A stretch of 64,000 bases of DNA from Ignavibacteriales bacterium (GCA_016192345.1 JACPUH010000002.1:8875-72874); one strand, 5' to 3'; counted from the first letter of the stretch, positions 13,475 to 30,203 are shown. Numbers and translations: made by a program. Notes: a model not told the origin generated them from the letters alone.

Positions 13475-14668
13475 TTACGGCTTCCTCATTTCTTCGATGG
13501 AGTCGTTGAGCAACTGAATGGCGTACTGCGGATTATGAATGCCCCCGCTCTTATCGTGTTCGATGAAGAAATAGTTGTACAGAGCGCCGGCCTTGCGAAG
13601 TCCTGCAGGCCCGACGAAAGTCCGCGGACTCGAGCTGCTGGCGCTTGAGGTTCCGTTGTTAGCCTGGACCAACCCGCTGGAACTGAGGATGCCTTTCGCC
13701 TGCAACAGCGTCGCCAGAGTGTCCAGGTATTCGTGGACATATTTATGGGCGCCCATGCCACCTGTCAGTGTACCCGAGGTTCCAACGTAGGTGTCCACAT
13801 TCATGGTGGCATGACATCCGGACTGGCGACAGCCGTTGGTGTTGTAGGCAGTCGTTGTGCCGGAGGGATATCCAATCACGTTCGTATGGCCACCGTTGCC
13901 TCCAGAAACAGGCTGCGCCATATGGCAGGTGGGACATCCACTCTGGGTGATTCCAGACTGCGTGGAGTGCGGTGAATTCACATAGGCCTTGCCCGGAAAT
14001 TCAAAGCCTCCCCCCTTCCCGGCTCCCAGGAACATCAGACCCTGCACACCATAGTGCGGATACCACCGGTTCGTAGTGATTTTGAGTGTATCAGTCGCAC
14101 CCGCGGTCGTCTTCATCTTGGGTGTGAAGCCCGACGAGCGGGGTTGATGGCAGTTCAGGCAAATATTTCCCTTGCCTAAATTGATCGTCTGGTCGGAGAT
14201 CCCTTCCATCGGAGACCAGAGAACAACGCTGGCTTCCGTCCGACGTGAGAAGTCCCCCTTCGAGTGTGGGGAATGACAGGCAAAGCATCCCACCGGGGAG
14301 GGCCTGTACTGGTTTGTCACCACGCTCCAAACCGCCGGCAAAGATTGGGGAGGGAAGCCCGCCTTGGCCCTCTGGACGAATCCTTCGGATGTATGGCAAC
14401 CCGAGCATGGGGCAGTGTTGCGGTCGTCAAACGTTCCGCCGGTGACATGGCCTGCCTGCGCCCATTGGTATTTTACCGCCCAGACATAGTAGGTCGTATC
14501 GATGTCCGGATTGTGGCAATTGCCGCAGTTAATCCCGGGAGCAAACCCTTCGAGATTCACGACCGTTGATTCACCTGACGGTCCTTGCGGCCCTTCCGGT
14601 CCGCGGCAAGCGGACAATGCCATCAGGACCACCGCCACCGTCGAAAGAGCAAGAAATCGTTGAGTCAT
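13475..14668 (-). CDS. Hexaheme lipoprotein cytochrome c (ExtD-like outer-membrane component)
   Basis: Lipobox LSAC, collagen-like GPEGPQGPSG linker, CGNCH, CSGCH, CFACH, CLNCH, CPTCH plus CRQSGCH (CX4CH), C-terminal GIHNP. Confidence 0.85.
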   Translation of the reverse strand: MTQRFLALSTVAVVLMALSACRGPEGPQGPSGESTVVNLEGFAPGINCGNCHNPDIDTTYYVWAVKYQWAQAGHVTGGTFDDRNTAPCSGCHTSEGFVQRAKAGFPPQSLPAVWSVVTNQYRPSPVGCFACHSPHSKGDFSRRTEASVVLWSPMEGISDQTINLGKGNICLNCHQPRSSGFTPKMKTTAGATDTLKITTNRWYPHYGVQGLMFLGAGKGGGFEFPGKAYVNSPHSTQSGITQSGCPTCHMAQPVSGGNGGHTNVIGYPSGTTTAYNTNGCRQSGCHATMNVDTYVGTSGTLTGGMGAHKYVHEYLDTLATLLQAKGILSSSGLVQANNGTSSASSSSPRTFVGPAGLRKAGALYNYFFIEHDKSGGIHNPQYAIQLLNDSIEEMRKP

Positions 14669-14698
14669 ATTGTTTCCTCCTGAGCAATACCGTTCAGA

Positions 14699-15583
14699 TT
14701 AAAATTCAAACTCGCCTGTCCCGATACTGATCTTTCCGTTGATGTGTTTGTTGGTGTTAATAATTTTCATCGATGCATCGACCACCTCTTCGTGGCAACG
14801 GCTGCATGGGGTTGTTGCAAAATCATAAACGGGATGCGTCCCACCCTGGGCCGTCGTTTTTGGCAAAGCCCGCTCTGCCAAGGTCGGCTTCGTCACATCC
14901 CCGTGACAGGTTCCGCAGGCCGCTTGCGTCCCGGAGACATCATTCCAGACCGGAGCAAAATTATTGCCGTTCCTGAAATTCCCGTGGCAATAGGTGTTGG
15001 AACATTTGAGGGTCTGTGGGTCATAGGACGGAGCAGGGGTAGGCTGCGGGAGATACGACCTCGCGAACAGAATATCGGCAGGTGTAACGACTCCGGCGGC
15101 ATCAATGTGACCGGGCGAAGAGACGGACGAAGGAACGGCATGACATTCCGTGCAAGGAGCATTCCTGGAGATTGCGCCCCCCAGCAAGTGCAGCTGGTGC
15201 GCCCCAACAGCCCGGGCCGTGCGCGCGGTATTCCTGCTCAGGTCGCGCGGGGGAGCCGGGTTCACCGTTCCATGGCAGGTGGAACAATTTTCCGGGCCGG
15301 CCGCGTTGGTATGGCATGTCAGGCACGAAGTCTGTGCAATGCCGCCGTCATACCGGGAACCATGACATGTCTGGCAACGCTTCATATCCCAACCCTGGCT
15401 CCGGATTTCCATCCCGTGAAAGTTGGCCGATGCGGGTGTCGTCCAGCCGTCGGGATGCACCTGCAATTCCCCCGTGGAGGGGGCCGGCAGATCCGTCTTC
15501 AGTTCACTGCAGCCGGTCAATCCGAAGGCCACGACAAGCGCCAGAAGGACACCGGAGAGACACACTCTATGCATGCTTTTCAT
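14699..15583 (-). CDS. Heptaheme lipoprotein cytochrome c with Geobacter-type CxxxxCH...CxxCH domain
   Basis: Lipobox LTGC; CQTCH, CLTCH, CSTCH, CTECH, CSNTYCH, CGTCH, CSRCH; CSNTYCH...W...CGTCH and H.NG.I match the CxxxxCH/CxxCH repeat style. Confidence 0.85.
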   Translation of the reverse strand: MKSMHRVCLSGVLLALVVAFGLTGCSELKTDLPAPSTGELQVHPDGWTTPASANFHGMEIRSQGWDMKRCQTCHGSRYDGGIAQTSCLTCHTNAAGPENCSTCHGTVNPAPPRDLSRNTARTARAVGAHQLHLLGGAISRNAPCTECHAVPSSVSSPGHIDAAGVVTPADILFARSYLPQPTPAPSYDPQTLKCSNTYCHGNFRNGNNFAPVWNDVSGTQAACGTCHGDVTKPTLAERALPKTTAQGGTHPVYDFATTPCSRCHEEVVDASMKIINTNKHINGKISIGTGEFEF

Positions 15584-15612
15584 GATCGATCTTCCAGAAC
15601 AGAAGTGACATG

Positions 15613-16851
15613 TTACTTATGGCAATATCCGCAGAAGCCCGTACCCTTCACACCCCCGACACGAGCGTTGGCATCGCTGTGACACGTAAAGCAATTGGCT
15701 CCGGGATCGCTATGCCAGTCGCCGTTCACCCCGGCCATGAATCCGCGGATGTGCGTCTTCGGATCCGTCCCTTTAAACCCGTCGGAATCCATATGGCAGG
15801 TGACACATGTCGGATCAGCGCCCTGAGCGTCATGACAGGAAGCACAGGTTTCCATGTCGCGTCGCGCCAGTTGTGCATGCAAACCGCCACCGGTTCCGAC
15901 GCCAATCGTCACGAATCCCGCCTGCTGATGCGTCGTTGGCTTGAATGTAACTTGATTGACATTTCCCCCTGCGGCGTGACACGTTGCGCAGAATTGTCGC
16001 TGACTGTGACAGGTCTGGCAATCGGCCGCTTTCCCCTGGGCCGCGATGCCGTGGGTGAAACGGAAGTTAAGATCGTGCACCTTCAGGAGCGAGGTCGATT
16101 TGCCGCGGTCCATCGTCATCAATCGGGGCGAGCGCGGAGAGATCGGGTCCCTCCCTGCCAAATCCACCTTTATGAGGTCCGTACCGTTGTGGCAATCGAT
16201 GCATGATTCCTGGGTGTGACAGCTTGCGCAGGACGCAGTGGAAAGCCGTGCGGTCTGTTTATGCTCCCGGACAAAATCAGTTCTGTTATGGTCCACCGGG
16301 CGAAGGCCCGCAAGGTCCGTATGACACGTTTCGCAGGTGTTCGAGGCCTGCACATCATTGTGACACGTATTGCACGTAGCCATGGCGGGAACGAGCGCCC
16401 CTGTGGGCATGCCTTCCTTTTCGAGATTGGTATGGCACGTGACGCAATCCATTTTTTGAACGCCGACATGCGCCTCGTGCGAAAAGACCAGCTCGCGCTG
16501 CGGACTTGCCGCCGCGGCGTAGGTGCTTTGGTCGCTGCTGGTATGGCAATAGGTGCAGTTCTGTGCCAGTTGCTCTTCGTGGCAACTCTGGCAGTTTTCT
16601 TTCTTGGCCAAGAGGTTCTCGGAAGAGAGCTTGCTCGTCGCAGCAGATTCATGGCAGGTGGCACACTCCAGGCCCGCGCCTTCCACATGCAGGGAGTGAG
16701 AGAACCTGATCGCTTTCGGTTGTTCCGGCTGGTCACCGACCTCCCTGGACTTCGTGACCATCGTGAACATAAGGGCGAGGACGCCGGAAATCATGACCAG
16801 CGCATACACCTGCTTCAGCGTCAATAGTCGGATTCGTCGGAGGATAGACAT
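15613..16851 (-). CDS. 14-heme periplasmic cytochrome c (c3-like N-terminus; ExtA-like)
   Basis: N-terminal hydrophobic signal/anchor, FSHSLH and FSHEAH c3/c7-type motifs, 14 CxxCH counted; starts 7 nt after the porin stop. Confidence 0.9.
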   Translation of the reverse strand: MSILRRIRLLTLKQVYALVMISGVLALMFTMVTKSREVGDQPEQPKAIRFSHSLHVEGAGLECATCHESAATSKLSSENLLAKKENCQSCHEEQLAQNCTYCHTSSDQSTYAAAASPQRELVFSHEAHVGVQKMDCVTCHTNLEKEGMPTGALVPAMATCNTCHNDVQASNTCETCHTDLAGLRPVDHNRTDFVREHKQTARLSTASCASCHTQESCIDCHNGTDLIKVDLAGRDPISPRSPRLMTMDRGKSTSLLKVHDLNFRFTHGIAAQGKAADCQTCHSQRQFCATCHAAGGNVNQVTFKPTTHQQAGFVTIGVGTGGGLHAQLARRDMETCASCHDAQGADPTCVTCHMDSDGFKGTDPKTHIRGFMAGVNGDWHSDPGANCFTCHSDANARVGGVKGTGFCGYCHK

Positions 16852-16858
16852 AAGGGGC

Positions 16859-18151
16859 TCAGAAAATATTCAATCGTTCGCTGACAAGAAAACTTCCGCG
16901 CACAAAAAACCTCACATCACTTTGGTAGATCGTATTCTGAATCCATTGGACCTGGGTATCGAGGCCAAGAGCGGGGACCGGCCGGAAGGCAACCCCGATG
17001 GCTGCGCTCAAGGCATCCTCAAGCTTCGAGGCAGATTCACTCAGTTTATACTTTGCATAGCTCAGCAGGAGCGACGGCGTCAGCCTGGCCTCCATCAGCG
17101 GATAGCTGACTTGGGCGGAGGCGGCGCTCAGTTCACCGGCATAGCCCACGTTCCGGGCAAGACTGACGGAAACATATTTTCCGCTCACACCCAGCGTCAC
17201 GCGGTCCGACGATTCGCCATCCCCATAGTCAACCGACCCGTATTTACCGAAGAGCTGCCATGAGGTCATCAGCGCATATTCTGCCCCCACTTCATACTCT
17301 TTCAACGTGTTGAATGTAAAAACCGAGAAGATGGAGTTGTAGGAGATGCGGGGCTCGCGCTGGAGGTATTCTCCCGTAAGACCAAGCGATTCCATCACCT
17401 TGACACGCGTAAAAAACTGGGCGCGCGCCATCTTTTCCGTATCAAAATCATAATCATAGCGGGCATACCCGGAGACAAGGTCTTCATAGTCAACGTTCAC
17501 ATCGCCGCTGAGGTAGCGCTCCGAGCTCGCCATCGGCTTGATTTCAACCAGGTACGGATTAAAGAGCGAGTCGCGTCGGTATGCGCTGTAGGGCTCCGCC
17601 TGAATTGTCCTGTTCATGTAACTGACGGAAACGCGGGCAGCCTCAAGAGGCTCTGCAACAACCTGGGCACCGGCCATCCTGTTATTGCTTTTGTCGCCGA
17701 TCATTTCCGCCTTCGATCCCGGGGGCGGAAGCGCTCCATAGTACCCGACGACCTTGAGCCTGGAATCGAGAAATTTCAGCGAAGCCAACCCACCGTCGAT
17801 GGTCCCGTTTCCCACACCTGCAAAGACCAGCTGCCGTCCGACGCTTACGTTCGCCACATCGAAAATATTGGACCATTTCAGATAGAGATTGTAGAGCCGG
17901 TACTTCGATTCTTCCGCGACGGGTCCACTGAGATCGGTAAAACCGTTGCCGTAGGCATGGAACGAAAGGTCGCCTCCGGTCAATGACAACGAGAGGGAGG
18001 TGTGACCAAAAAGATGATCGGACGAGCGGCCAACGGTGTCCTGGCGCTGCCAGGCGTAGGCCGACGTCACCACCCTGGCCTGAAAGAGCTGGGCCGAAAG
18101 GGTTGAGGTCACAAGTGCTGAAAGGATAAGGAACTGCAGGAGCCTTCGCAT
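16859..18151 (-). CDS. Outer-membrane beta-barrel, porin of a porin-cytochrome complex
   Basis: Signal peptide MRRLLQFLILSALVTSTLSA, alternating hydrophobic beta-strands, C-terminal Phe (...SERLNIF); start at ATG 18151 with GGAGA RBS; about 430 aa. Confidence 0.8.
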   Translation of the reverse strand: MRRLLQFLILSALVTSTLSAQLFQARVVTSAYAWQRQDTVGRSSDHLFGHTSLSLSLTGGDLSFHAYGNGFTDLSGPVAEESKYRLYNLYLKWSNIFDVANVSVGRQLVFAGVGNGTIDGGLASLKFLDSRLKVVGYYGALPPPGSKAEMIGDKSNNRMAGAQVVAEPLEAARVSVSYMNRTIQAEPYSAYRRDSLFNPYLVEIKPMASSERYLSGDVNVDYEDLVSGYARYDYDFDTEKMARAQFFTRVKVMESLGLTGEYLQREPRISYNSIFSVFTFNTLKEYEVGAEYALMTSWQLFGKYGSVDYGDGESSDRVTLGVSGKYVSVSLARNVGYAGELSAASAQVSYPLMEARLTPSLLLSYAKYKLSESASKLEDALSAAIGVAFRPVPALGLDTQVQWIQNTIYQSDVRFFVRGSFLVSERLNIF

Positions 18152-18192
18152 GGTCGTTTCTCCAAAAAATAGAATTCCATCCACACTCCGTT

Positions 18193-18209: not shown

Positions 18210-18222
18210 CATGCAAAAACCG

Positions 18223-18315
18223 GGAAAACCTCCGAGGTTGTTCAAAAATTCAACAATTTTTCCGGTCCAGTGTAGACCTTTCCTACACCTAAGAAACAAC
18301 CGTGGGAGGTTTTCC
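18223..18315. other. Multi-branched inverted-repeat element between c554 and the porin
   Basis: Outer 11-bp GGAAAACCTCC/GGAGGTTTTCC, inner 7-bp GGTTGTT/AACAACC, enclosing hairpins AAAAATT-CAAC-AATTTTT and GTGTAG...CTACAC. Confidence 0.55.
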
Positions 18316-18343: not shown

Positions 18344-18889
18344 TTACCCGGCTTTCGGGACCGGATGATGGATCTTCTCCCAGTACTCTTTGAATTTGAA
18401 CTCCTTATAGAACGGACTCTTCGCATTGTGGCATGTTTTGCAGAATGCCTCGATCGCGGCTTCATCCTTGAACTCCGTCAATCCTTCCGCAACAGCTTTC
18501 TCCTTGCTCTTCATGACTGTCATGTTGCGATAGGCTGAACCGGCGCCATGGCATGTTTCGCACTGCACGCCGTCTTTGATATCAAAACCCTTGTCGAGCA
18601 GTTTGGCATCTGCAACCGTGGTATGGCACTCAAGGCACTCTTTGGCTCCTGCCGCCGGCCCAGAGATGCCTTTCGCCTTGGCAACCTCATCGGCTTTTGC
18701 AGTTGTCAAAGTCTTGTAGGCACCGGCATGGGCGCTCTTCATCCATATATCCTTTTGCTTACCTTGTTTCTCCGTCTGGTGACACATAAAGCAAGATTTT
18801 GTCCCTACATACTTCTTCTGCGCGCTTGCCACAGTCGGCACGAGTAAGACGATGGCAACTATCAAGCTGGCAGCATTGATTGTCTTCAT
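18344..18889 (-). CDS. Tetraheme cytochrome c554-family periplasmic protein
   Basis: Signal peptide; YVGTKSCFMCH...W..SAH..AY, CLECH, GVQCETCHGAGSAY, CKTCH. Confidence 0.9.
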   Translation of the reverse strand: MKTINAASLIVAIVLLVPTVASAQKKYVGTKSCFMCHQTEKQGKQKDIWMKSAHAGAYKTLTTAKADEVAKAKGISGPAAGAKECLECHTTVADAKLLDKGFDIKDGVQCETCHGAGSAYRNMTVMKSKEKAVAEGLTEFKDEAAIEAFCKTCHNAKSPFYKEFKFKEYWEKIHHPVPKAG

Positions 18890-18954
18890 GAGTATCTCCC
18901 TCTGGTGATTGATGAGTTACGTGTTCGAGCGTATCATTTCTACAAGAACACTTC

Positions 18955-20298
18955 CTATGATGAGGTGGCACCTCTTCCCGGCAAATAGCTGTGAATCCGC
19001 TCTTCCACTTCTCTAAGCCCATGAGTTCGACCCTCTTCAATCTCCCATATCGAGATAAGGGGGAAGAACTTCGAGAACAGCATGAATCCCATGACGAAAG
19101 CTGATATCCCGCCTGCAAAGAGCGCCCATTCGAGGATGGTCGGCACATAAATTCCGGCAGGAAGGTCGAGCCGCGGGTTTGCGAGAGATGGTACGACGAT
19201 AATCAGGCGCTCCAGCCACATCCCGATCACAACGGCGACTGAAGCAATGAACATGCCCTTAATCGTCCGGAGTCTTCGGAAACTGAGTATGATGAGAGGA
19301 AGCACAAAATTGCACAAGACCATTCCCCAGAAGTAGAAGGCAAAAGGCCCTGTAAACTTGTACATAATGATATGCATTTCGTGCGGTTCTGCTCCGAACA
19401 CACCTGTCAGGTATTCTGAAAAAGTGAAATAGAACCAGATGATGGACATGATGAGGAGCAGCGTACTCAAGTACCGAAAATGAATTTCCTTCAAATACTC
19501 TTCAAGGTGGTACGCCCTCCGGAAGGCTATCATGACGATCATCAATGCTGCGATCCCGGAGAAGATTGCGCCCACGACGAAATAGGGGCCGAAGATCGTG
19601 CTGTGCCAGCCTGGCTGAAGCGTCATGGAGAAGATATACGATATCACCGTGTGAACCGAGATCGCGATGGGAATGACCATGATCATCAGAATATTAATTG
19701 CGCGGTTCAACACCCGTTGTTGGTGCTCCGTGCCGGTCCACCCCCATGCCATAATCGAATAAAGCCATGTGAGTTTCCCCCCCCGATCACGAATTCTCGC
19801 GATGTCGGGTATCATGGGCAAATACAAATAGACCGTGCTTGCTGTGAAGTAGGCGGTAATACTCGTAACGTCCCACAAGAGCGGTGATTGTAATCGTCCG
19901 GCAGTGAAGAGATTGAGCATTCTATCGGGCCGCCCGAGGTCAAGGATAGGATGCAACCCGCCGATGGCAAGGACGATGGCTGTAATAACTTCCGCCATGC
20001 GTGTGATGGGGCGCCGCCATTCCGCCTTTGAAAGTCTTAGAATTGCGGAAATCAGCGTGCCCGCATGGCTAATGCCGATGAAAAACACAAAATTGACGAT
20101 GTAGAATCCCCACGTGACCGGCTGATTCATCCCGGTCAGTCCCAGTCCGAACCACACCTGGGTGACATACATGTACAAAGCCCAGAGAAAAATGATCCCG
20201 AGGATTCCAAACGCGACGTAGAACCCCGTGCCTGTCTCGTAGATGGGCCTGAAAAGGGCTTCGTCGCGATCCTGCGCTGCGGTCGGTTTTGTTTTCAT
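18955..20298 (-). CDS. NrfD/PsrC family quinone-site membrane subunit (ActC-like sequence) of the Qrc/ACIII-related complex
   Basis: [58 protein letters not shown]; about 10 TM helices. Confidence 0.9.
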   Translation of the reverse strand: MKTKPTAAQDRDEALFRPIYETGTGFYVAFGILGIIFLWALYMYVTQVWFGLGLTGMNQPVTWGFYIVNFVFFIGISHAGTLISAILRLSKAEWRRPITRMAEVITAIVLAIGGLHPILDLGRPDRMLNLFTAGRLQSPLLWDVTSITAYFTASTVYLYLPMIPDIARIRDRGGKLTWLYSIMAWGWTGTEHQQRVLNRAINILMIMVIPIAISVHTVISYIFSMTLQPGWHSTIFGPYFVVGAIFSGIAALMIVMIAFRRAYHLEEYLKEIHFRYLSTLLLIMSIIWFYFTFSEYLTGVFGAEPHEMHIIMYKFTGPFAFYFWGMVLCNFVLPLIILSFRRLRTIKGMFIASVAVVIGMWLERLIIVVPSLANPRLDLPAGIYVPTILEWALFAGGISAFVMGFMLFSKFFPLISIWEIEEGRTHGLREVEERIHSYLPGRGATSS

Positions 20299-20984
20299 GA
20301 CCCGGTTCTTCTGGCTAAGTAGTATACTTTTGGTTTGACACCGAGATCTTCCCCGTACCGATACACGCGATAGCTGCGGGAGAGACGTGAGACGTCGCTG
20401 TCTCTGTTTTCAATGTCCCCGAAAACGATGGCGTCTGCCGGACAACTCTCCAGGCAGGCAGGAACATATTCCCCGTCACGAATCTGGCGATCTTCGATGT
20501 CCGCATTTTCTTTTACCTTCTGCAATCGGTGCGAACAGAAGGAGCACTTTTCGACTACGCCAACCATCCGTCGGGAAACATCGGGATTACCGACGTCGGA
20601 GGCTCCCTCAATCCATTTGGGGTCGTACCAATTGAACGACTTGGCAGTGAACGGACAGGCGGCCATGCAATAGCGGCAGCCGATGCACCGGTGATAAATC
20701 TGGGCCACAAGTCCCTCCGGATTGCGATACGTTGCACCAACGGGACACACTAGAGTGCAGGGGGGATCATCACAATGAAAGCACGGTTTCGGAACTCGCT
20801 TCACATGGGTGTTGGGATAATCCCCCTCGACTGTCGTCATCATGTCCATCCAAACCATGGCGCGGCCATTCCGGGCCTCTTCCGGATCGACGATGGGGAT
20901 ATTGTTCTCCATTTTGCAGGCCACGCTGCATGCCCCGCAGCCTGTACACTTGTCGAGATCAATCACCATTGCCCACTTTGGCAT
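20295..20984 (-). CDS. 4x[4Fe-4S] subunit (NrfC/PsrB/QrcC-like)
   Basis: CTGCGACSVAC, CFHCDDPPCTLVCP, CIGCRYCMAACP, CSFC...PACLESCP; start MPKWAMVIDLDKC at ATG 20984 with AAAGGAG RBS. Confidence 0.92.
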   Translation of the reverse strand: MPKWAMVIDLDKCTGCGACSVACKMENNIPIVDPEEARNGRAMVWMDMMTTVEGDYPNTHVKRVPKPCFHCDDPPCTLVCPVGATYRNPEGLVAQIYHRCIGCRYCMAACPFTAKSFNWYDPKWIEGASDVGNPDVSRRMVGVVEKCSFCSHRLQKVKENADIEDRQIRDGEYVPACLESCPADAIVFGDIENRDSDVSRLSRSYRVYRYGEDLGVKPKVYYLARRTGS

Positions 20985-21001
20985 ATCAGCACTCCTTTGT
21001 T

Positions 21002-23452
21002 CTAGGCAGCCGGAGAGATTTTGACCTTTGTTGCCTGCAAGGCAGGTTTCCCACTCACCATATCGTACAAATTCTTCATAATCACATTGGGATTCGTGCC
21101 GTGCCCTTTTGCATAGCGGCCCATCGATGTATGTCCAAGCCCGAACGGAACTGCGATGACATTTGGCATGATTCCTTCGGTGGTCTTCGCCCTGGCCCGG
21201 ATGGTGCCCATGGTCGACTGAACCAGGACCCACTGCCCATCAGTAATTCGATACGAGGCCGCGGTTTCCGGATGTATCTCGACCCAACTTTCCCAATGTC
21301 TGTGAATGGCATGCCCAAACATCTCCTGCATCATCGGAAGCGACGCGCCCTGGCCGTCCCTGACAGGCAAAACACGAAACGTGATCAGGTGAAGGGGCAT
21401 ATCAGGGTCATACCGAACGGGCTCGTGATGCGGAAGGAACACATTGTCCCCGCGTGCCGAAATGTTCAATTCGTTAAGGATGCGCTCCCGGTTCTGGGCA
21501 GAGCCGGTTTTCCCTTGTTGTGCGACAAGAGTATCGATGGCTTCTTTGAGCTTCTGCGAAAAGAATTCGAATCTGTTCGAACGCGTTTGAAAAACCTGAT
21601 CCCATCGTTTCTGTTTTCGAATCGGGTTCCACCACCCCCCTTGCTTCACCAGCCGATCCCAGAACTCATCGAACGAATCGTATTGCCCTATCTGCCAGCC
21701 CCGCTGCTGGAGGTATTGAATCCACATCGTGCCAACCCCCTCCGAGACAATAGATCCGGTGCCCGACAGGTACACACCCTTTAAGGCATTTCTTAATTCG
21801 TGTTCATAGGAATCGAACTGAAATGCTCGGGCGACCGATCCACCAATTCTCTTTGCGAGATTCATAAAAACGTCGCCGCTCTGTTTCGTGTCATACAGGG
21901 GAGAGACAACCGGATGCTGGATCCCAACGTGTGTGAATCCTACGGTTCCCACGTTTGATACTTCGTCCCACCGTTCCATGAAGTGATGGTCGGGAAGAAC
22001 GATATGGGCATGTTCGCTCGTTTCATTGAGCAACGTATCCAAGCTGATCACGAGCGGTATTTTCCGAAGCGCGTCCGCCAGTTCGCGGTGATTTGGCGAT
22101 TGGAACAGAGGATTGCCCCCGTACAGAAACAAGACGCTGATCGGATAGGGGGAGCCATCGAGAATGTTCCTGGTAAACGATTCTATCGAGAATTGTGTCA
22201 CTGGAAATGTACTGGCATTCGGCTGACCGATAGGAATCTGACCTAACCCCGCGCGGGCAATCGCATCAATGCCTGCCACTCCGGATTTCGTGAATGGCGG
22301 ATCATCGACAAAAAAGAGCCCGCCTTTCTTTTCAAAATTACCCAGTAGAGCGTTCAGACTGTGCACCGCCATTGCGGCAAACGTACCGTTCGTATTATCG
22401 ACTGTTCCCTGGTCACCCATGACAAGTGCCGGGCCGGTATTGCCCAGTTCACGGCCAAGTCGAAGGATGGTCGAGCTGGGAACACCCGTCAGCTCTTCAA
22501 CTTTTTCCGGATAGTAGTTTCCGAGAACCATGTTTTTGAAACCAACTTGTCTCGTTCCGGAGCTGTCAACGCGATCTTCGAAGCCGAACGAATGGTCGCG
22601 GACAAATCCCTTGTCATACAATTCTTCACGAATAAGAATATACGCAAGGCCGAGCGCCAGAGCTCCGTACGTTCCGGGCCGGATCGGGATCCATTGATCA
22701 GCATTTCCTGCCGTGAGGCTCAACCGGGATTCAATCTGCACGTAACGCGTCCGCTGTTCTTCGTGGTGACTGTACAACTTCGTGTAGTAGATCGGGGAAT
22801 ATCCTTCTTCGAGAAAATTCGCTCCAAAGCTCACGACGAGCCGCGCGTTGAGGATGTCATAGGCCGGGACGGTGGAGTGTCCGTGAAGGAGCGAGTAGGG
22901 GACGGTGTTGTTTTGGGCAGAGGAGAATTGATAATAATTCGGTGAGCCATACACCTGCATAAAGCGGCGGATGTGTTCCTTCATGAGACCGTTCTCTTCG
23001 TTACCCAGGAATGCCACCTCATGCGCTTTCCCCGCGTTGCGAAGATCCAGCAATCGGTCTTTGACCATCGTGAGGGCCTCATCCCAGCTCATGGAATCCC
23101 ATTTCCCGCTGCCGATTGCCCCGGTTCGCTTCATCGGCCCTTTGAGGCGGTCCGGATGATAGAGAGAATGCAGAGCGTTAAGGCCTAACGGGCACAAGCC
23201 ACCCCTATTGACCGGGTAGACCGGATTGCCTTTTATCGAAACCGGAATTCCGTCGATAAGACGAACACGGAGACCGCAGCCTGCCGGGCACAGACCGCAA
23301 ATGGTGTTTTGCCACGTTTCGATCTTTGGTCCGTTCTTCGCCCTCTCCAGCAATTCCTCTGGGACAGCGATGACGTCATCCAGGTTGCCGAACAAGACTG
23401 CTCCGGAAACACCGCCGAAGAATTTTAAAAAATCACGCCGCTTGATTTCCAT
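21002..23452 (-). CDS. Tat-exported molybdopterin-oxidoreductase-fold subunit (QrcB/ActB1-like)
   Basis: RRDFLK Tat motif; CGLCPAGC...GGLCPLG FS0 motif; molydopterin-binding C-terminal domain (WVEIHPETAA...GLGH); no Cys seen near the expected Mo-ligand segment. Confidence 0.85.
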   Translation of the reverse strand: MEIKRRDFLKFFGGVSGAVLFGNLDDVIAVPEELLERAKNGPKIETWQNTICGLCPAGCGLRVRLIDGIPVSIKGNPVYPVNRGGLCPLGLNALHSLYHPDRLKGPMKRTGAIGSGKWDSMSWDEALTMVKDRLLDLRNAGKAHEVAFLGNEENGLMKEHIRRFMQVYGSPNYYQFSSAQNNTVPYSLLHGHSTVPAYDILNARLVVSFGANFLEEGYSPIYYTKLYSHHEEQRTRYVQIESRLSLTAGNADQWIPIRPGTYGALALGLAYILIREELYDKGFVRDHSFGFEDRVDSSGTRQVGFKNMVLGNYYPEKVEELTGVPSSTILRLGRELGNTGPALVMGDQGTVDNTNGTFAAMAVHSLNALLGNFEKKGGLFFVDDPPFTKSGVAGIDAIARAGLGQIPIGQPNASTFPVTQFSIESFTRNILDGSPYPISVLFLYGGNPLFQSPNHRELADALRKIPLVISLDTLLNETSEHAHIVLPDHHFMERWDEVSNVGTVGFTHVGIQHPVVSPLYDTKQSGDVFMNLAKRIGGSVARAFQFDSYEHELRNALKGVYLSGTGSIVSEGVGTMWIQYLQQRGWQIGQYDSFDEFWDRLVKQGGWWNPIRKQKRWDQVFQTRSNRFEFFSQKLKEAIDTLVAQQGKTGSAQNRERILNELNISARGDNVFLPHHEPVRYDPDMPLHLITFRVLPVRDGQGASLPMMQEMFGHAIHRHWESWVEIHPETAASYRITDGQWVLVQSTMGTIRARAKTTEGIMPNVIAVPFGLGHTSMGRYAKGHGTNPNVIMKNLYDMVSGKPALQATKVKISPAA

Positions 23453-23467
23453 AGCAACTCCGGTGTA

Positions 23468-23995
23468 TCATCGGTGGCAGGTGAGACAGTCGTTGGAAAC
23501 GTTGTTCTCGCGATGGCACTGCATGCAATTCTCCATCGTGATGGGAAGAAACTGGGAAGCAACGGGTTCGGTGAATCCGGATACATCGCCATGGCACGCC
23601 TTGCACTCGAGCCCTGCCTTGGTGACGTGACGCCGGTGGGAAAAATAGACATGGTCGGGCACATGATACACGCGCTGCCAGAGAATCAACTCCTCCTTCT
23701 TTACGAACTCGAGCAGTTTCACCTCTTCAGCCGACTGCGAGAGTGGTTGATCCGAGTGGCAGGTGCTGCAGACTTCGAGACTTGGAATCGAGGCGCTGGA
23801 AGAGGTCAGAACGGATGCGTGACAGTCGGTGCAGGTCATGCCGGCCGTTTCCATGTGAGCTTTGTGACTATAACGGATGGGCTGGGTTACGATGTCTCCT
23901 GAAGTTGAGGCAAGATAGACAACGACGACAATGAGTATACCAGCGGCAGCGCCGGCGCGTACCGTCCATTTCACAAAGGGTGTCATACTCTTCAT
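23468..23995 (-). CDS. Membrane-anchored pentaheme cytochrome c (QrcA/ActA-like)
   Basis: N-terminal TM; QPIRYSHKAH, CTDCH, CSTCH, PDHVYFSHRRH, CKACH, MENCMQCH, CLTCH. Confidence 0.9.
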   Translation of the reverse strand: MKSMTPFVKWTVRAGAAAGILIVVVVYLASTSGDIVTQPIRYSHKAHMETAGMTCTDCHASVLTSSSASIPSLEVCSTCHSDQPLSQSAEEVKLLEFVKKEELILWQRVYHVPDHVYFSHRRHVTKAGLECKACHGDVSGFTEPVASQFLPITMENCMQCHRENNVSNDCLTCHR

Positions 23996-24031
23996 GAGGC
24001 TGCCTCAGGTTGAGGGTTCGGACAAATGACG

Positions 24032-25189
24032 TTAGTTCTTTGAGACCTTCCGGAGATAGCTGTAAAGATCTCGCATCTCGGTGAGTGAAAGTTCCGGCCA
24101 TCGCTTGTTTTGCGTGACAAGCATATCTTCCATGTCACCGGCATGATTCCACATAAGTTGGATCATGCGAACGGGAGTGTTCATTTTCTTTACAGATCGA
24201 AGATCCGGTCCTTTGCCCTGACCGCCCCCATGGCAGCTGACACACCCTTTCTCGTTGAACGTGACTTTTCCCCGCTCGGAATTCCCTTCTTTATCTTCAA
24301 ATCCCAGGAAATACACATAGGCGATGATATCCGCCATTTCGTTTTTGTCGAACCGCGGCCATTCGATAGACTCTTTTTGCATATGCTGGAGCATCAACTG
24401 TCCATGATTCCACATCGCGCTCGCCACCTCCGTCACGCCTTTCTTCAGATCGATCTTCACAAGACCTGCTTCTATTCGCTTCCGCTTCCCCTCACCGACG
24501 TGACAGGTGGAGCATCGCTTTTCGTCGAAGAGTTCTCGTCCCCTCTTCGGGTTGCCGACCGAGAGCCGGACCTCTACGTCCGCCGTACTTGCCTGGCGCA
24601 AATACGCCGCAATGTCGACGACATCTCGACCGCTCAGCATCGGATATTTCATTTTGCCTTTTGTGATCTGCTCTTGCATCGCTGGTCCATGGTTCCACAT
24701 AGCCTGTACCAAATAGAGTGGAGCAGAATAACGCTGAATCGTTTTGAAATCAGGACCAGTAGTTCCGCCTTGGCCCCCGACAGCATGGCACGCGATGCAA
24801 CCTTTTGAGTTCAGTACGCTCCTTCCGTTTGCAACGCTGCCCGGTTCTCCCAAATATCGGAGATAGTACAGGAAGCCGAGAAGATCGAGCATTTCACCCT
24901 CGGTGAGCTGAGGACGATCCATGCGGAGCAGCCGGAATTTCCTGTTCATTTGCGGTGCGTGATTCCAAATGACGGACGCTAATTCCAGGGCGCTTCCAAA
25001 ATACTGATCACGGCTTAAGTCGGGCCCCGCTGTTCCTCCGTACCCGCCGATCATATGACATGCGATGCATTTCTTCTCTTCAAAGACAATCCGTCCGTTC
25101 AGAGGATCAGTTGGCAATTCAATTTCCTGGGCTTGAAGAGTCCCGGCAAGGAGGATGACGGACAGTGCGATTAGCTCTCGAATGCGCAT
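24032..25189 (-). CDS. Periplasmic cytochrome c with four class I monoheme domains
   Basis: Signal peptide MRIRELIALSVILLAGTLQA; four G..(F/L)..K.CxxCH units (CIACH, CIACH, CSTCH, CVSCH), each followed by WNHx(3)M. Confidence 0.88.
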   Translation of the reverse strand: MRIRELIALSVILLAGTLQAQEIELPTDPLNGRIVFEEKKCIACHMIGGYGGTAGPDLSRDQYFGSALELASVIWNHAPQMNRKFRLLRMDRPQLTEGEMLDLLGFLYYLRYLGEPGSVANGRSVLNSKGCIACHAVGGQGGTTGPDFKTIQRYSAPLYLVQAMWNHGPAMQEQITKGKMKYPMLSGRDVVDIAAYLRQASTADVEVRLSVGNPKRGRELFDEKRCSTCHVGEGKRKRIEAGLVKIDLKKGVTEVASAMWNHGQLMLQHMQKESIEWPRFDKNEMADIIAYVYFLGFEDKEGNSERGKVTFNEKGCVSCHGGGQGKGPDLRSVKKMNTPVRMIQLMWNHAGDMEDMLVTQNKRWPELSLTEMRDLYSYLRKVSKN

Positions 25190-25220
25190 ATCACTTCTCC
25201 TCTGTCTTTGATGTGGATGA

Positions 25221-25469
25221 CTATGTCTTCTTGTGCAATCCGACAAAAACAAATGTTAGGATGGAAGCGAGGGTGATGAAGATGGGAATTGCGACAATAC
25301 TGATTGCCACGGATGCCCCAGGAGCATCGTTGAGGTCAACGGCAAGCAGGATGAGGTTGATAATCCAAAGGGTGATTGCTACCACAAAGACCCAGATAAA
25401 GAGAACGCTGAAAATCTGGGCTACGAGAATGGCTTTCTCCGCGATCGAGCTTGGCTGGTCGTTGCTCAT
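25221..25469 (-). CDS. Small two-TM membrane protein, first gene of the Qrc/ACIII-related operon
   Basis: 82 aa, two hydrophobic helices, AGGAGG upstream, directly after a sigma54 element. Confidence 0.65.
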   Translation of the reverse strand: MSNDQPSSIAEKAILVAQIFSVLFIWVFVVAITLWIINLILLAVDLNDAPGASVAISIVAIPIFITLASILTFVFVGLHKKT

Positions 25470-25505: not shown

Positions 25506-25522
25506 CGCAAGAAGCGTGCCAA
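25506..25522 (-). promoter_or_regulatory. Sigma54 -24/-12 promoter of the Qrc/ACIII-related operon
   Basis: Minus strand TTGGCAC-GCTTC-TTGCG, near-perfect consensus, 38 nt before ATG 25469. Confidence 0.85.
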
Positions 25523-25695: not shown

Positions 25696-27180
25696 CTAGC
25701 GATTCTGCACCTGTTCTTTTTCGATGCGTCGGATCGAGATATAGAGCGCGAAGGCGAGAATTGTGATAATCAGGGACGCAATGAAAAGCCCCCATCGGCG
25801 GAAATAGTACTGGTCAATTGCTTCGCTTGCTTCTGTGGAGACCTTCGCGGCGGATCCAAAACCGCGGGTGGCAACTTCCGAAAACTGATCAAGATCGAAT
25901 GAATGGACCTTTGTGCGAGTTTCCAGACGGGCTTGCCGAATTTCCCGCAACTTGAACTTTGCTTCTCCCACTTCCATCCCTTTTTGCTCCGCCTCGTCCA
26001 CTAGCATGATGGCGTTTTCTTCACTGACGATAAGGCTGTCCGCAAGTGAGCGCATCGTTCGGGCTATTTGATATCCCTTGATGTTGCTATTCTCTTTATG
26101 ACACCATGCACACACGGCTCCCTCCCCAACTCCAAGAAGCTCATCCTTGGCGGCGACGATCTCGTGGTTCCCGTGGCATGTTTCGCACTCGGGCAGTTTT
26201 CGGGAATCAAATGCCTTCTTATGAGGGCTGGAAGAAAAGAGTTCTGCATTCAAAGCGTGACATGTCCCGCATACCTTGGAAACTGATTCCACGCCCGGGG
26301 GCGCGGCACCATGATTGCCGTGACAATCATTGCACGCTGGCGCTCCAAGGTCCTTTTTCTCGAGGAGCGCCTGGCCATGCACGCTCCTGGCGAATTGTTC
26401 GAATTGGTCCGAAGCTATGCCATACGGTCTCATATAGGTCGCGTCGGAATGGCACTTGGCACATGTGGCGGGAAGTTTCGTCGGATGAACCTGAGACCTG
26501 GGATCTTTTGCCGAGAGAATCTCATGACTGCCGTGACAGCTGGCACACTCTGCTGTCTTAGGGTCCCCGTTTTTATTTCGCTTGCCGTGAACGCTCGTTT
26601 TGTATTTTTCAAGCTGATCAACCGGGAGGCTCGGATTATAGGTCCGCATGAAGGTCGCGTCAGAATGGCACTTCGCGCACGTAGCGGGAAGGTTCAAAGG
26701 ATGAACGGGGGAAGATCGATTTGTTTTTGTCACGATTCCGTGAGCTCCGTGACAGGAGGTGCACTGTGCAATGTGCTCTCTCCCTGAAGTAGAGAGCTTT
26801 CCGTGGACGCTTCCTCCCACAAGCTCCATCTGGTCCAAAGGAATAGCGGAATTGTACTTCTTGACCATCACTCCCGCGTCCGAATGGCATTTTGCGCATG
26901 CGACAGAAATTCGGTCTCCCTTCGGAACGCCGATGAATCCCGCCGCCGTTCCCATCGCTTTCTCCATGTCGTCGGTGTGTGAATCGCCTCCATGGCAGGA
27001 AGCGCACGTAAGCCCGTTCCGGAAATGAATATCGCCTTTGAACGCGGTCGATGCATTGTCCTCCAGCGTGGAGTGACATGTAAGACACTGGTCCTGAGCC
27101 TGGGCGGTCCCAAAGGCCGTTGGAAGGGCGAGCACACTGCAAAGCACTATGGCAAGAGCATTGTTGTTCACGAGAGCCAT
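25696..27180 (-). CDS. 11-heme cytochrome c with C-terminal membrane anchor, partner of the Rieske/cytochrome b pair
   Basis: Signal peptide, 11 CxxCH, repeated SVHG...C..CHG.H modules, helical stalk, C-terminal TM; start overlaps the cytochrome b stop by 13 nt. Confidence 0.9.
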
Positions 27181-28247
27181 CCGATCGTGGTAAGGATGAT
27201 GATGTAGATCAGCGCAAAGAGCCCAATATAGTTGATGAACCGGTTCTCTTCCCCTCTCGAACTCTTCTTATCCCAGAACGGTATAAACATCCAGACAACA
27301 CCTGCGAGGCTGAAAAGCAGGATGCCGACAACTTCCCCCTCCAGGAACCAAAGTTCACCCGGAATGTACTTGAGAGTCTGGAACATGAACATAAAGTACC
27401 ACTCCGGCTTGATCCCGGCGGGGGCGGGAGCAAAGGGATCCGCCTTAACGCCAAGTTCCCAGGGGAAAAAGACGGCCAGGATGGCAAGGAGGTTGAGCAC
27501 GAGAAGCCACAGCAACAGATCGCGCAGCATGAAATTCGGGAAGAACGGCATCGTCTTCTGATCGGTGACCGGCAACCGTTCATACGATAAGGGTTTGCTC
27601 ATCCCTTGACGCTGGACAAGGAGAAGATGGAGGCCCAACACCACGGTAAAAATGCCGGGAAGCACGGCGACATGGAATCCGAAGAACCGGGAAAGGGTCG
27701 CGCCCGTCACGTCCTCTCCACCGCGCAGAAATACCATGATCGGTTCTCCGACAATGGGCAGGACCCCTGCGATGTCGGTCCCGACTTTGGTTGCGAAGAA
27801 CGACACCTCGTTCCACGGCAAGAGATAGCCGCTGAATCCGAAGCCCATACCGAGGAACAGCAGGATCATGCCGCTCAGCCACGTCAATTCGCGCGGCTTC
27901 CGGTACGCTTTTTCGAACAGCACACTGAACATGTGGATGAACGCTGAGAGGATGAACAAATTTGCCGCCCAGCTATGGATGGATCGGATGAGCCAGCCGA
28001 ACTCCACTTTCGCCATGATGAACTGAATGCTCTCAAACGCAAGCTCCTCACTCCCTTTGTAGTAGAGGAGAAGGAGGATGCCGGTGACAACCTGAATGAT
28101 GAAGAGGAAGAGGGAAACCCCGCCGAAGTAATACCAGACTGAGTGGCTGTGTACCGGCACGCTCTTCTTCTCCAGGAAGTGCATCACATCGCTTAACTGG
28201 ACGCGCTCGTCAATCCAGGTGAAGGTTCGGTTCCAGAGTGTCTTCAT
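27168..28247 (-). CDS. Cytochrome b of a Rieske/cytochrome b complex (b6 and subunit IV fused)
   Basis: YYFGG...[15 protein letters not shown]...[23 protein letters not shown]...LHLLLV (four heme b His), Qo motif PEWY. Confidence 0.95.
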
Positions 28248-28702
28248 GTGCGGCTCGAAATGATGACTTCATCGGCTTGGATGATGACACGGTATTCATC
28301 CAGCGGCCGCGGTGGAGGGCCGCCCACCACGCGGCCGTTCAAGTCGTATTTGCCATTATGACATGCGCACCAAATCACTCCCGTGTCTTTTCGAAACTGG
28401 ACCGTGCAGTCGAGGTGCGTGCAGGTCGCGGAAAACGCCCGAACCTCTCCCTCGGCCGTCCGAATCATCATTACGGGTTTGTTGCCGAAACGGACGATCA
28501 CCCCACTCTCCTTCTCGATCTCGCTGAGCTTGCCCGCTTTGACGCTCGTGACTTCCACGTCCCCCTGCTTGGGGGGCTTGAGATAGGCAAAAACCGGGTA
28601 GAACACGGCACCCAGCCAGGCGAGAATCCCACCCCCCAGGAGGTATTTCAGAAAATCGCGCTTGCTGTGTTGTGGCTGGTCCAGTGTGGTGGGAGTATCC
28701 AT
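28244..28702 (-). CDS. Rieske [2Fe-2S] subunit
   Basis: Tat-like KRDFLK TM anchor; CTHLDC and CACHNGKY boxes; GPPPRPL; ATGA overlap with cytochrome b. Confidence 0.95.
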
Positions 28703-28709
28703 AATGCTC

Positions 28710-30203
28710 CTATTGGGCCTGGTGACAATCGCTGCAGTTCATTTCTTTCCATGCCGTACCGATGTCGACAGGGTGCTCGTACTCGAGCCCTTCAAGGGAC
28801 ATCTTGAGTTTTTCGTTCTCGTACTGTTGAGCAACAATGGTATGGCACGTATTGCAGTCCCTCGACAGGACTTTGCCGTCCTCGCTGACGTGCTTACCGT
28901 CATGACACCGGAAGCATCCCGGAGCGTACATATGGCCGATATGGTCCGGGTACTGACGCCAGTCATGTTTCATTTCCGGGAAGTAATTCCTCCGATATAC
29001 CTTCTGGAGCTCCGTAATGGCCCGCTCGATGCTCTCATGCCGTTCAGCCGCGATGACGGGGTAGTTTGCCCTGTAGTATTCCTCGATGACGGTCCTGATG
29101 CTGTCCGCCGCCTTCTCCCTCGTCGTGTACGGATGTTCCAGCACCTGCACCGCAAGGCTCTTGACGTACGGAAGGTTCCGGTCAAGCCACCCCAGGTCCA
29201 TGATATGATTCACGCTTCGCTGGGGGGGCTGGTAAATGTGTGTCGGGCGGTTGTGGCAGTCGATACAATCCATTCTTCGCGTCGTTGCCAAGGCCAGTTC
29301 TTCCTCCGTCGGCTTCACCTCCGTACTCTTGTAGACACGTTCCACTCCGTCCCTGCTTCGTGACTTGACCCACGGGATGACCATGCGCTGCCGGTCGAGC
29401 GCCGTGTAGGTCACCTCATTATCAATGTTCATGTGCCAATGGATGCCCGAGTTCGCACCGGATTCCGGAACACCCCCTCCGATCTTCATCAAGAGAGAGA
29501 GGTTCCACTTGGTATTCTTTTCGTCCGAAATATAATTCGTGATTTCCTTCTTTTTCTCGTTGAAGAAATGTTGCGGCCAGTGGCATTGTTCGCACGTTTC
29601 CTGTGCAGGCCGCAGGTTCTCGATGGGAGTCGGAATGGGTCGCGGATATTTATTGAACGCCGTGGCATAGAGCTGGTACGCACCGGAGAGTTTTGAGCGC
29701 ACAAACCAGCCCGCGCCGGGTCCGATGTGACACTTCACGCAACCGACCCTGGCGTGGGGAGAGAATTGATAGGCAGTGTATTCCGGCTCCATCACTTTGT
29801 GGCAGGTTTCCCCGCAGAATGCGTCAGAGTCGGTGTATTCGTATGCCTTGAAGCTTCCGAAGGCCGAGAACATGAGAAGCAGAATGCTTCCGACGGAAAC
29901 ATAGAAGAACGCAGTTCGATGGCGCGGATTGTTCAAATCGATCTGTGGCAGGCGCAGCCCATGCGGTTTTCCGCTTCTTTCCCTTTTGTGCTCTCTCCAG
30001 ATCCCCACCGCGATAAGAGAAAGTCCAAAAATCAAAATGGCGGGGAGAATCACGAACGCAATGATTCCCATGTACGGCTTTTGCTCTTCCGAAAAGAACT
30101 CCAGGGCTATAAGAAACAGGATGAGGCCGAAACTGACCGCGGCAACGGTTGCCCCCACCAGCGTTATGAGGTTGTAGAAACTATCCGGGAAGATTCTCTT
30201 CAT
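28710..30203 (-). CDS. imcH: ImcH-like inner-membrane heptaheme NapC/NirT-family quinol dehydrogenase
   Basis: Three N-terminal TM helices, CGETCH plus six CxxCH; HIGPGAGWFVRSKLSG, PIENLRPAQETCEQCHWP, GIHWH, RRMDCIDCHNRPTHIY and HIGH.Y.PGCFRCHDGKH match my recollection of Geobacter ImcH. Confidence 0.8.
   Translation of the reverse strand: MKRIFPDSFYNLITLVGATVAAVSFGLILFLIALEFFSEEQKPYMGIIAFVILPAILIFGLSLIAVGIWREHKRERSGKPHGLRLPQIDLNNPRHRTAFFYVSVGSILLLMFSAFGSFKAYEYTDSDAFCGETCHKVMEPEYTAYQFSPHARVGCVKCHIGPGAGWFVRSKLSGAYQLYATAFNKYPRPIPTPIENLRPAQETCEQCHWPQHFFNEKKKEITNYISDEKNTKWNLSLLMKIGGGVPESGANSGIHWHMNIDNEVTYTALDRQRMVIPWVKSRSRDGVERVYKSTEVKPTEEELALATTRRMDCIDCHNRPTHIYQPPQRSVNHIMDLGWLDRNLPYVKSLAVQVLEHPYTTREKAADSIRTVIEEYYRANYPVIAAERHESIERAITELQKVYRRNYFPEMKHDWRQYPDHIGHMYAPGCFRCHDGKHVSEDGKVLSRDCNTCHTIVAQQYENEKLKMSLEGLEYEHPVDIGTAWKEMNCSDCHQAQ

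Follow-up and report, generated by a model that had tools for sequence, protein, structure and literature searches.

The operon described here lies on the minus strand at positions 18344-25469 of a 64,000-nt stretch of DNA from an Ignavibacteriales bacterium (GCA_016192345.1 JACPUH010000002.1:8875-72874), the whole of which is referred to below as the window. It consists of seven tightly spaced open reading frames (ORFs) running from 25469 down to 18344, and each of their domains was confirmed by Pfam profile searches. The first gene (25221..25469) encodes a small subunit of 82 aa with two hydrophobic helices, and is followed by that of a secreted 385-aa cytochrome c (24032..25189) made of four class-I monohaem repeats, with four CxxCH motifs and four stretches matching Pfam Cytochrom_C; the ATG at 25189 is its likely start, the frame being open from a TTG at 25252. 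Then come a membrane-anchored, ActA-like pentahaem cytochrome of 175 aa (23468..23995), which has an N-terminal transmembrane helix, five CxxCH motifs and a Pfam Cytochrome_C7/c3 match, and an 816-aa subunit (21002..23452) with the fold of proteins carrying a molybdenum-bis(pyranopterin guanine dinucleotide) (Mo-bisPGD) cofactor. This large subunit, B1 for short, matches PF04879, PF00384 and PF01568, contains a CxxCxxxCx27C motif and is predicted to be exported by the twin-arginine translocation (Tat) system from its leader MEIKRRDFLKF, with RRDFLK as the twin-arginine motif. The iron-sulphur (FeS) subunit, B2 (229 aa; 20295..20984), has 16 cysteines in four ferredoxin-type groups and matches Pfam Fer4 families, and its stop codon overlaps the start (ATGA) of the gene for a 447-aa NrfD-type, quinone-interacting membrane subunit (18955..20298; Pfam NrfD), which is ActC-like with an Asp-type site. 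After a gap of 65 nt, the series closes with an accessory, c554-like periplasmic tetrahaem cytochrome of 181 aa (18344..18889; four CxxCH motifs; Pfam Cytochrome_C554, 6.1e-15). No TorD/DmsD-type chaperone gene was found by Pfam among the operon ORFs. This inventory and its coordinates, which had been proposed in an original prediction made from the DNA alone, are borne out by the ORF calls and the Pfam matches. Judged by its sequence, the encoded complex belongs to the clade of molybdoenzyme-derived respiratory complexes that includes alternative complex III (ACIII) and the Qrc complex, in which it forms a lineage of its own.

Three of the subunits are of the ACIII kind. The solved ACIII structures used for comparison were those of R. 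marinus (6F0K), F. johnsoniae (6BTM), Roseiflexus (6LOD) and Chloroflexus (8K9E), and a canonical ACIII encoded elsewhere in the window served as an additional reference. The pentahaem cytochrome, whose five CxxCH motifs are present in 69 relatives, found its best solved matches in ActA chains (8K9E_A at 1.9e-24, 6BTM_A and 6F0K_A) and is 30% identical to the window's ActA. The FeS subunit is closest to the C-terminal half of ActB (6F0K_B, 1.6e-60, as against 2.6e-37 for ArrB), which also surpassed PsrB. All 16 of its cysteines are invariant in 75/75 relatives, including C103 of a CIGCRYC motif, the position of which is occupied by Thr in every ActB examined: the sequence is CIGTRYC for R. marinus, CVGTKYC for both Roseiflexus and Chloroflexus, and CVGTRYC for F. 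johnsoniae as well as for the window's ActB. This departure from the ActB motif had been correctly noticed at the outset. The subunit is thus predicted by motif to carry four [4Fe-4S] clusters, while in ACIII and Qrc the cluster beside the quinone site is a [3Fe-4S] (PMC6303296). The NrfD subunit was found to match ActC of the four ACIII structures at 5.5e-74 to 5.3e-70, with no match to PsrC among solved structures searched by sequence, and it is 33% identical to the window's ActC. The ActC-type motifs originally reported in it are real and are common to R. marinus ActC (6F0K chain C), SPLLWDV included.

The quinone site of the NrfD subunit nevertheless differs from that of ActC. The quinol-site residues of R. 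marinus ActC are His139, Asp169 and Asp253 (PMC8076601). Ser138 and Asp143 of the NrfD subunit, which correspond to ActC Ser164 and Asp169, are invariant in 66 relatives, whereas His139 is replaced by Asp (Asp120) and Asp253 by Ile or Val (position 222) in 66/66; the four canonical ActC considered (three solved ones and that of the window) carry His and Asp at these two positions. An Asp at the helix-2 position likewise characterises QrcD, HybB, DsrP and the PsrC of W. succinogenes (PMC8076601) and, since it is thereby shared by quinone reducers and a quinol-oxidising PsrC, Asp120 alone gives no direction of electron flow. An exhaustive search with the NrfD subunit returned 471 clusters at E<=1e-30, and a FastTree phylogeny was built from 189 sequences comprising search clusters, the fetched family and the four canonical ActC, with one ActF as the root and without QrcD, DsrP or HmcC sequences. 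In this tree the family forms a clade of its own (support 0.993), whose sister (support 0.977) comprises 57 unnamed NrfD proteins, mostly with Asp at the helix-2 site; ActC sequences of the His/Asp type fall elsewhere. Ten of these neighbours score far below the DsrP, QrcD and HybB cut-offs, and the gene of the one inspected adjoins an FeS gene only. The phylogenetic check that had been called for therefore places the subunit outside canonical ActC and in a separate lineage, within a comparison set made of ActC and ActF and lacking QrcD. Together with the profile scores given below, this suggests a sequence that lies outside canonical ActC, yet whose closeness to ActC far exceeds what the Qrc and Dsr models indicate for their own families. 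Three further observations concern the relatives of this subunit. Many of the close ones (P0126, P0133, P0134, P0137, P0142, P0157 and others) are 600-765 aa long, so that they carry a fused extra domain; some mix the site residues, combining Asp with Asp, His with Ile or Cys with Ile; and the radiation of 10-helix NrfD proteins around ActC is large and mostly unnamed.

B1 presents a different picture. Its best matches among solved structures, by sequence, were to ArrA over the whole length (2.7e-86) and to PsrA (2.7e-52), ActB coming only at 1e-11 to 1e-21, and an AlphaFold2 model (predicted local distance difference test score of 79) was superimposed by Foldseek on ArrA with a template-modelling score of 0.79 and on PsrA with 0.72-0.79. 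PF00384 and PF01568 are matched with 138 and 64 bits, whereas the window's ActB has no PF00384 match and reaches 22.9 bits for PF01568. The four FS0 cysteines (C52, C55, C59 and C87) are 100% conserved in 72 relatives. In the same 72 sequences, the hallmarks of the pterin site are gone. The cysteine that ligates molybdenum in ArrA and PsrA corresponds to a gap or an Asn, in a stretch that varies more than any other part of the protein and has no conserved Cys, Ser or Asp; its surroundings in ArrA (HSSVCAEAHK) are missing from B1 in the alignment. The Arg that follows the fourth FS0 Cys in ArrA and PsrA, i.e. the Arg/Lys bridging FS0 to the pterin, is L, M, S, H or A, and the Asp of the PGTD motif is replaced by Y, M, E or H. 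As neither the ligand, nor the bridging Arg, nor the PGTD Asp is conserved, B1 has most likely lost the Mo-pterin site while keeping FS0. The N7 cluster of NuoG in complex I provides an example of an FS0-type cluster retained in a Mo-fold domain that has no pterin. A functional Mo-bisPGD site, which the original prediction had named as a finding that would speak against it, is thus unlikely in view of the loss of these three hallmarks. QrcB and ActB1 are known cofactor-less relatives (PMC6303296, PMC13059093).

The two remaining subunits of the core are homologous to neither ActD nor ActE. The repeats of the four-domain cytochrome are of the SoxX-like class-I type (NCBIfam scores of 62.6 bits for SoxX and 67.1 bits for TIGR02603); four CxxCH motifs are present in 64/64 relatives, each repeat following the pattern CxxCH..GPD..WNHxPxM, and BLASTP detected no significant similarity to ActE. 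The small transmembrane protein is conserved in 60 relatives, with the motif L.DapgaSv.ISivAiPvF..A..LTYVFvGL, and compares with ActD neither by profile (no PF11821 match, the window's true ActD scoring 167 bits) nor by BLASTP, where no similarity was seen. With a single NrfD gene in the operon, homologues of ActD, ActE and ActF are all lacking, as had been stated.

Comparative analysis revealed that these genes form a conserved unit. A scan of one genome per species yielded 271 relatives of the large subunit, and 80 loci were compared by searching them with the window proteins, namely the best 79 of the 271 and four fetched earlier through homologous proteins, three of which overlapped. The core was defined as the pentahaem, large, FeS, NrfD, small transmembrane and four-domain cytochrome subunits. 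All six genes occur together in 54/80 loci, most of the others being cut by contig ends, and the identity of the Mo-fold subunit across loci ranges from 77% down to 36%. There are two gene orders: the small transmembrane and four-domain cytochrome genes follow the NrfD gene in 36 loci and precede the pentahaem gene in 18, the latter being the order in the window, and the small transmembrane gene always adjoins that of the four-domain cytochrome. To call the complex 'minimal', as was originally done, is therefore misleading, because these two proteins are constant subunits of a six-gene core rather than additions. The c554 gene, by contrast, is found in the flanks of 35/80 loci, so that it is an accessory gene outside the constant core. 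Among the hosts of the module are Ignavibacteria, Calditrichia, KSB1, Fidelibacterota, Krumholzibacteriia, Rhodothermales, Acidobacteria, Aminicenantes, Binatia, Tectomicrobia, Nitrospinota and delta-type metagenome-assembled genomes (MAGs). Nine of the 45 loci whose flank measures 4 kb or more, some of these nine distant, have homologous porin and cytochrome genes immediately after the module, and a commoner neighbour than this conduit is a set of Rieske and cytochrome b genes, present in the flanks of 29/80 loci; in several distant lineages the module stands amid unrelated metabolic genes. This pattern points to a general link between quinones and cytochromes rather than to a dedicated part of extracellular electron transfer (EET).

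How, then, does the module relate to known complexes? With ACIII (ActABCDEF) it shares a membrane-anchored, ActA-like pentahaem cytochrome, an FeS module nearest to the C-terminal half of ActB, a 10-helix NrfD subunit nearest to ActC (with the GI(S/G)-led motif, SPLLWDV and the equivalents of Ser164 and Asp169 in common) and a Mo-fold subunit without Mo ligand. Unlike ACIII, however, it has ActB split in two, with a full-size, ArrA/PsrA-like B1 bearing FS0 cysteines; four cysteines in the motif of the proximal cluster, where ActB has the [3Fe-4S] motif C-x-G-T-x-Y-C; Asp and Ile/Val in place of ActC His139 and Asp253, in a subunit outside the canonical ActC clade; and the two-helix protein and tetrahaem class-I cytochrome but no ActD, monohaem ActE or second NrfD-like ActF. 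The separate genes for multihaem, Mo-fold, FeS and NrfD subunits (PMC6303296) and the Asp in helix 2 of the membrane subunit (PMC8076601) are features of QrcABCD from Desulfobacterota. In Qrc, the cytochrome c3:menaquinone reductase of sulfate reducers that oxidise hydrogen or formate, however, QrcB is cofactor-less and QrcC has a [3Fe-4S] cluster (PMC13059093, PMC6303296), whereas here FS0 (72/72) and the fourth cysteine (75/75) are invariant by motif, the partner is a class-I cytochrome instead of cytochrome c3, and the host is not a sulfate reducer. The initial description of the layout as QrcABCD-like thus holds for the separate subunit genes and for the names of the best profile hits, which are Qrc models, but not for the scores, all of which fall short of the NCBIfam equivalog cut-offs (QrcA 96.8/180, QrcB 318.7/440, QrcC 285.4/400 and QrcD 33.9/570), nor for the sequences, three of the four subunits being closest to solved ACIII. 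The NrfD subunit likewise reaches 98.9 bits with the DsrP model, which has a cut-off of 350 bits. As a control, the canonical ACIII of the window was found to match the QrcA, QrcB, QrcC and DsrP models best too, because NCBIfam has no Act models, and the Qrc names were accordingly rejected as evidence of Qrc membership.

Two other groups of systems invite comparison. Neutrophilic iron oxidisers (Ferriphaselus, Gallionellaceae and Mariprofundus) have split actAB1B2CDEF clusters in which B1 has a CX2CX3CX27C motif (PMC4643136); the likeness to the module in the B1/B2 split and in this motif was drawn by description rather than by sequence, and these clusters keep ActD, ActE and ActF, which the module lacks. 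An 'ACIII-like' cluster with a four-haem cytochrome in the position of ActE has been described in an MBNT15 bacterium (PMC9386147). Arr and Psr (6CZ7, 2VPW) resemble the module in the fold and length of the large subunit, FS0, Tat export and four [4Fe-4S] clusters in the small subunit, but differ in that the module has neither the Mo-ligand Cys nor the arsenate-site residues, possesses extra pentahaem and tetrahaem cytochromes, and has a 10-helix membrane subunit that is ActC-like and does not match PsrC. The family is widespread and combines features of both ACIII and Qrc with signatures of its own, kept family-wide. The expression 'Qrc/ACIII-type complex' used at first is right at the level of the clade, and the hybrid character that it conveys is real and holds throughout the family. 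The module does not answer to the definition of either ACIII or Qrc, and most likely works like one of them.

The reading that we favour, to which we would give a probability of roughly 55% on these comparisons, is that of a six-subunit menaquinol:cytochrome c oxidoreductase with an accessory c554, feeding periplasmic cytochromes. Its architecture was deduced by homology to the solved ACIII structures, and the direction of flow is an inference too. The 10-helix NrfD subunit would hold a menaquinol/menaquinone site on the periplasmic side, lined by Asp120, Ser138 and Asp143 and abutting the FeS subunit with its four putative [4Fe-4S] clusters. From the cluster proximal to this site, electrons would be taken up by the pentahaem cytochrome and passed to the secreted cytochrome and its four class-I haems, which might in turn reduce soluble or outer-membrane partners such as the c554-like cytochrome and the adjoining porin-cytochrome conduit. 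Tat-exported B1 would carry the FeS subunit across the membrane and, with its Mo-pterin site presumably lost, would leave FS0 at the end of the FeS wire. Although nothing in the sequence fixes an inward or an outward direction, and the reaction is probably reversible in principle, the physiological direction is most likely from menaquinol to cytochromes, which would add a further quinol dehydrogenase to a gene island already rich in cytochromes. Several lines of evidence are in accord with quinol oxidation. The constant partner is a SoxX-like class-I tetrahaem cytochrome with a conserved Met in each repeat, and class-I cytochrome haems with His/Met ligation have potentials well above that of menaquinone. 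Three of the subunits are ACIII-like, and the neighbours of the operon are quinol-oxidase-type modules and a porin-cytochrome conduit of the outward type. Finally, the comparable 'ACIII-like' cluster of a putative iron reducer has been interpreted in the same way (PMC9386147).

A number of observations weigh against this scenario, and many of them are what could be expected if electrons entered the cell instead. The conserved His of the WNH motif could give the four-domain cytochrome bis-His, low-potential haems; the quinone-site Asp that invariably replaces the ActC His is also found in two quinone reducers, QrcD and HybB (PMC8076601); and a further quinol oxidase looks redundant beside Rieske/cytochrome b, NapC/NirT-type and CbcL-like modules. 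The operon stands directly upstream of a porin-cytochrome operon, a linkage that recurs in nine loci, some of them distant; candidates for Cyc2-like monohaem barrels are found near the module in four loci; and Fe(II)-derived electrons have been proposed to enter through split actAB1B2 with CX2CX3CX27C (PMC4643136, PMC5566968). Moreover, the invariant FS0 and a Mo-fold far less degenerate than that of ActB1 hint that B1 is more than a scaffold. The original prediction had accordingly envisaged an inward EET entry, i.e. a Qrc-like complex in which conduit-fed cytochromes would pass electrons from Fe(II), reduced humics, cathodes or partner cells to menaquinone for Nar and Nrf, and genes for a nitrite reductase and a nitrate reductase do occur within the window. 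This idea, which is not new because an Fe(II) role was already proposed for split ACIII-like clusters with the FS0 motif (PMC4643136, PMC5566968), finds no specific support here and appears possible but rather doubtful. The Asp is directionless, being found also in DsrP and in the quinol-oxidising PsrC of W. succinogenes (PMC8076601). There is no conduit in 36 of the 45 loci with enough flank, the conduit of the window resembles outward-acting Geobacter types, and the neighbouring modules are of the quinol-oxidase type. The core partner is of class I and not a low-potential donor of the c3 type, so that electrons would have to run uphill to reduce quinone, unless the membrane potential drove them.

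The retention of FS0 also has to be considered in the light of a working enzyme, in which B1 would bind Mo- or W-bisPGD with no protein ligand or an unusual one and the operon would encode an Arr/Psr-type terminal reductase or oxidase with extra cytochromes. The similarity to ArrA over the full length (2.7e-86), the superposition of the model on ArrA and PsrA at 0.72-0.79, the strong PF00384 and PF01568 matches, unlike those of the window's ActB, the Tat signal, the fully conserved FS0 cysteines and an FeS subunit whose clusters are by motif all [4Fe-4S], as in PsrB and ArrB, could all be understood in this way, and arsenite oxidase illustrates that a protein ligand to the metal is not obligatory. 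It is nonetheless hard to see why the ligand stretch should then vary most in a protein that is otherwise well conserved, the ArrA residues around the ligand Cys be absent and neither the bridging Arg/Lys nor the PGTD Asp be conserved, and the operon has no gene for a TorD/DmsD-type chaperone; in addition, both the membrane subunit and the FeS subunit belong to the ACIII kind, whose partner subunits are cofactor-less (PMC6303296). We consider an active enzyme very improbable. Somewhat less improbable, but still unlikely, is a surviving intermediate between Psr/Arr molybdoenzymes and ACIII/Qrc, in which the entire FeS wire would remain in use, from the quinone site by way of the four [4Fe-4S] clusters to FS0 within the former catalytic subunit, and the lost Mo site would serve as the docking site for the four-domain cytochrome; such a complex would have two ports, one haem and one FeS, and could act in conduit-linked operons as a reversible gate between conduit and menaquinone. 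As for the notion that these genes are the chance neighbourhood of separate systems rather than one complex, the variable presence of the c554 gene and the 65-nt gap before it are all that might speak for it; the tight spacing and the ATGA overlap argue otherwise, and the recurrence of the same six genes across phyla in two fixed orders contradicts it, making it the one account that can virtually be set aside. The menaquinol-oxidising complex thus remains the preferred reading.

ACIII and Qrc are the two studied respiratory complexes that arose from a disabled molybdoenzyme, and they work in opposite directions with different energy conservation. A third lineage, common in uncultured bacteria of groundwater, soil and sediment and endowed with its own cluster set, quinone-site chemistry and cytochrome partners, would be a natural experiment on what determines the direction and the proton coupling of NrfD-type modules. 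The lineage is also a candidate for the inner-membrane link of EET outside Proteobacteria and Desulfobacterota. The only labels that it currently bears ('molybdopterin-dependent oxidoreductase', 'DmsA' or 'selenocysteine-containing dehydrogenase') invite wrong metabolic predictions for the genomes concerned.

The operon is embedded in a region rich in electron-transfer genes. As originally described, it stands directly upstream of a conduit: a four-gene porin-cytochrome operon (13475..18184, minus strand) begins 160 nt downstream, at 18184, and encodes a 441-aa barrel-like protein, which has no Pfam match, and three multihaem cytochromes; a CcmF-like gene comes after it. Upstream lies another minus-strand operon (25696..30203) for a NapC/NirT-type multihaem protein, a Rieske protein, cytochrome b and a multihaem cytochrome. 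Elsewhere in the window there are two multihaem/cytochrome-b modules, NrfA and a complete canonical actABCDEF set adjoining nar genes. The four FS0 cysteines are also kept in the canonical fused ActB of this set (53790-54139, minus strand; CRACSAGCG...GGLCAIG), while solved ACIII structures have no cluster in the Mo-fold domain of ActB. The DNA sequencing runs containing the locus are groundwater, soil and sediment metagenomes, and its close homologues are labelled as Ignavibacteria, Ignavibacteriales and Bacteroidota MAGs.

No RNA sequencing run was found to contain the locus. A sigma-54-type -24/-12 motif, TGGCACGCTTCTTGCG (25506..25521, minus strand), is found 37 nt 5' of the first gene with one mismatch to TGGCAC-N5-TTGCW. 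It is well placed before the small transmembrane gene, but statistically insecure, with five matches window-wide as against 2.2 expected, which is not significantly above chance, and is only suggestive. Two distant relatives have sigma-54 activator genes near the module, and a second, looser sigma-54-like motif, CGGCACGGCAGTTGT, precedes the porin gene. Simple promoter and terminator scans gave no signal above background. Between the c554 gene and the porin gene, at 18222-18315 on the minus strand, a stem of 11 bp (GGAAAACCUCC / GGAGGUUUUCC) encloses about 70 nt and is followed by CGGUUUUU; this stem and the T run might be a terminator, although the RNA fold of the intergenic region is no better than that of shuffled sequence (z -0.97).

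Some of the related loci have features of their own. In four lineages, an ORF of 371-519 aa that has one CxxCH at its N-terminus and an aromatic residue at its C-terminus is found within 10 kb of the module (L029:12431-13651, L071:7409-8968, L080:7372-8718 and L077:21334-22449); these ORFs, four only and picked by a heuristic screen, are the candidates for a Cyc2-like cytochrome-porin architecture mentioned above. Upstream of the module in a KSB1 MAG (GCA_029261995.1, L085:164-9293) are genes for a histidine kinase and a sigma-54 activator, as well as for a 1000-aa protein that contains two EB_dh domains, of the haem-b type, and has a tail for type IX secretion. A relative with 67% identity (L001:2033-4730) has genes for a multihaem protein, an FeS protein and a 404-aa NrfD, all absent from the window, inserted between the NapC/NirT-type and Rieske genes. 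In an Aminicenantes MAG (GCA_011772475.1, L084:16188-22460), the module is directly followed by a Rieske/cytochrome b operon that opens with the gene for an FAD/NAD-binding FeS protein of 642 aa and closes with one for a class-I cytochrome and one in which a dihaem cytochrome match is combined with porin domains, an arrangement that recalls the unusual Rieske/cytochrome b complexes of anammox bacteria.

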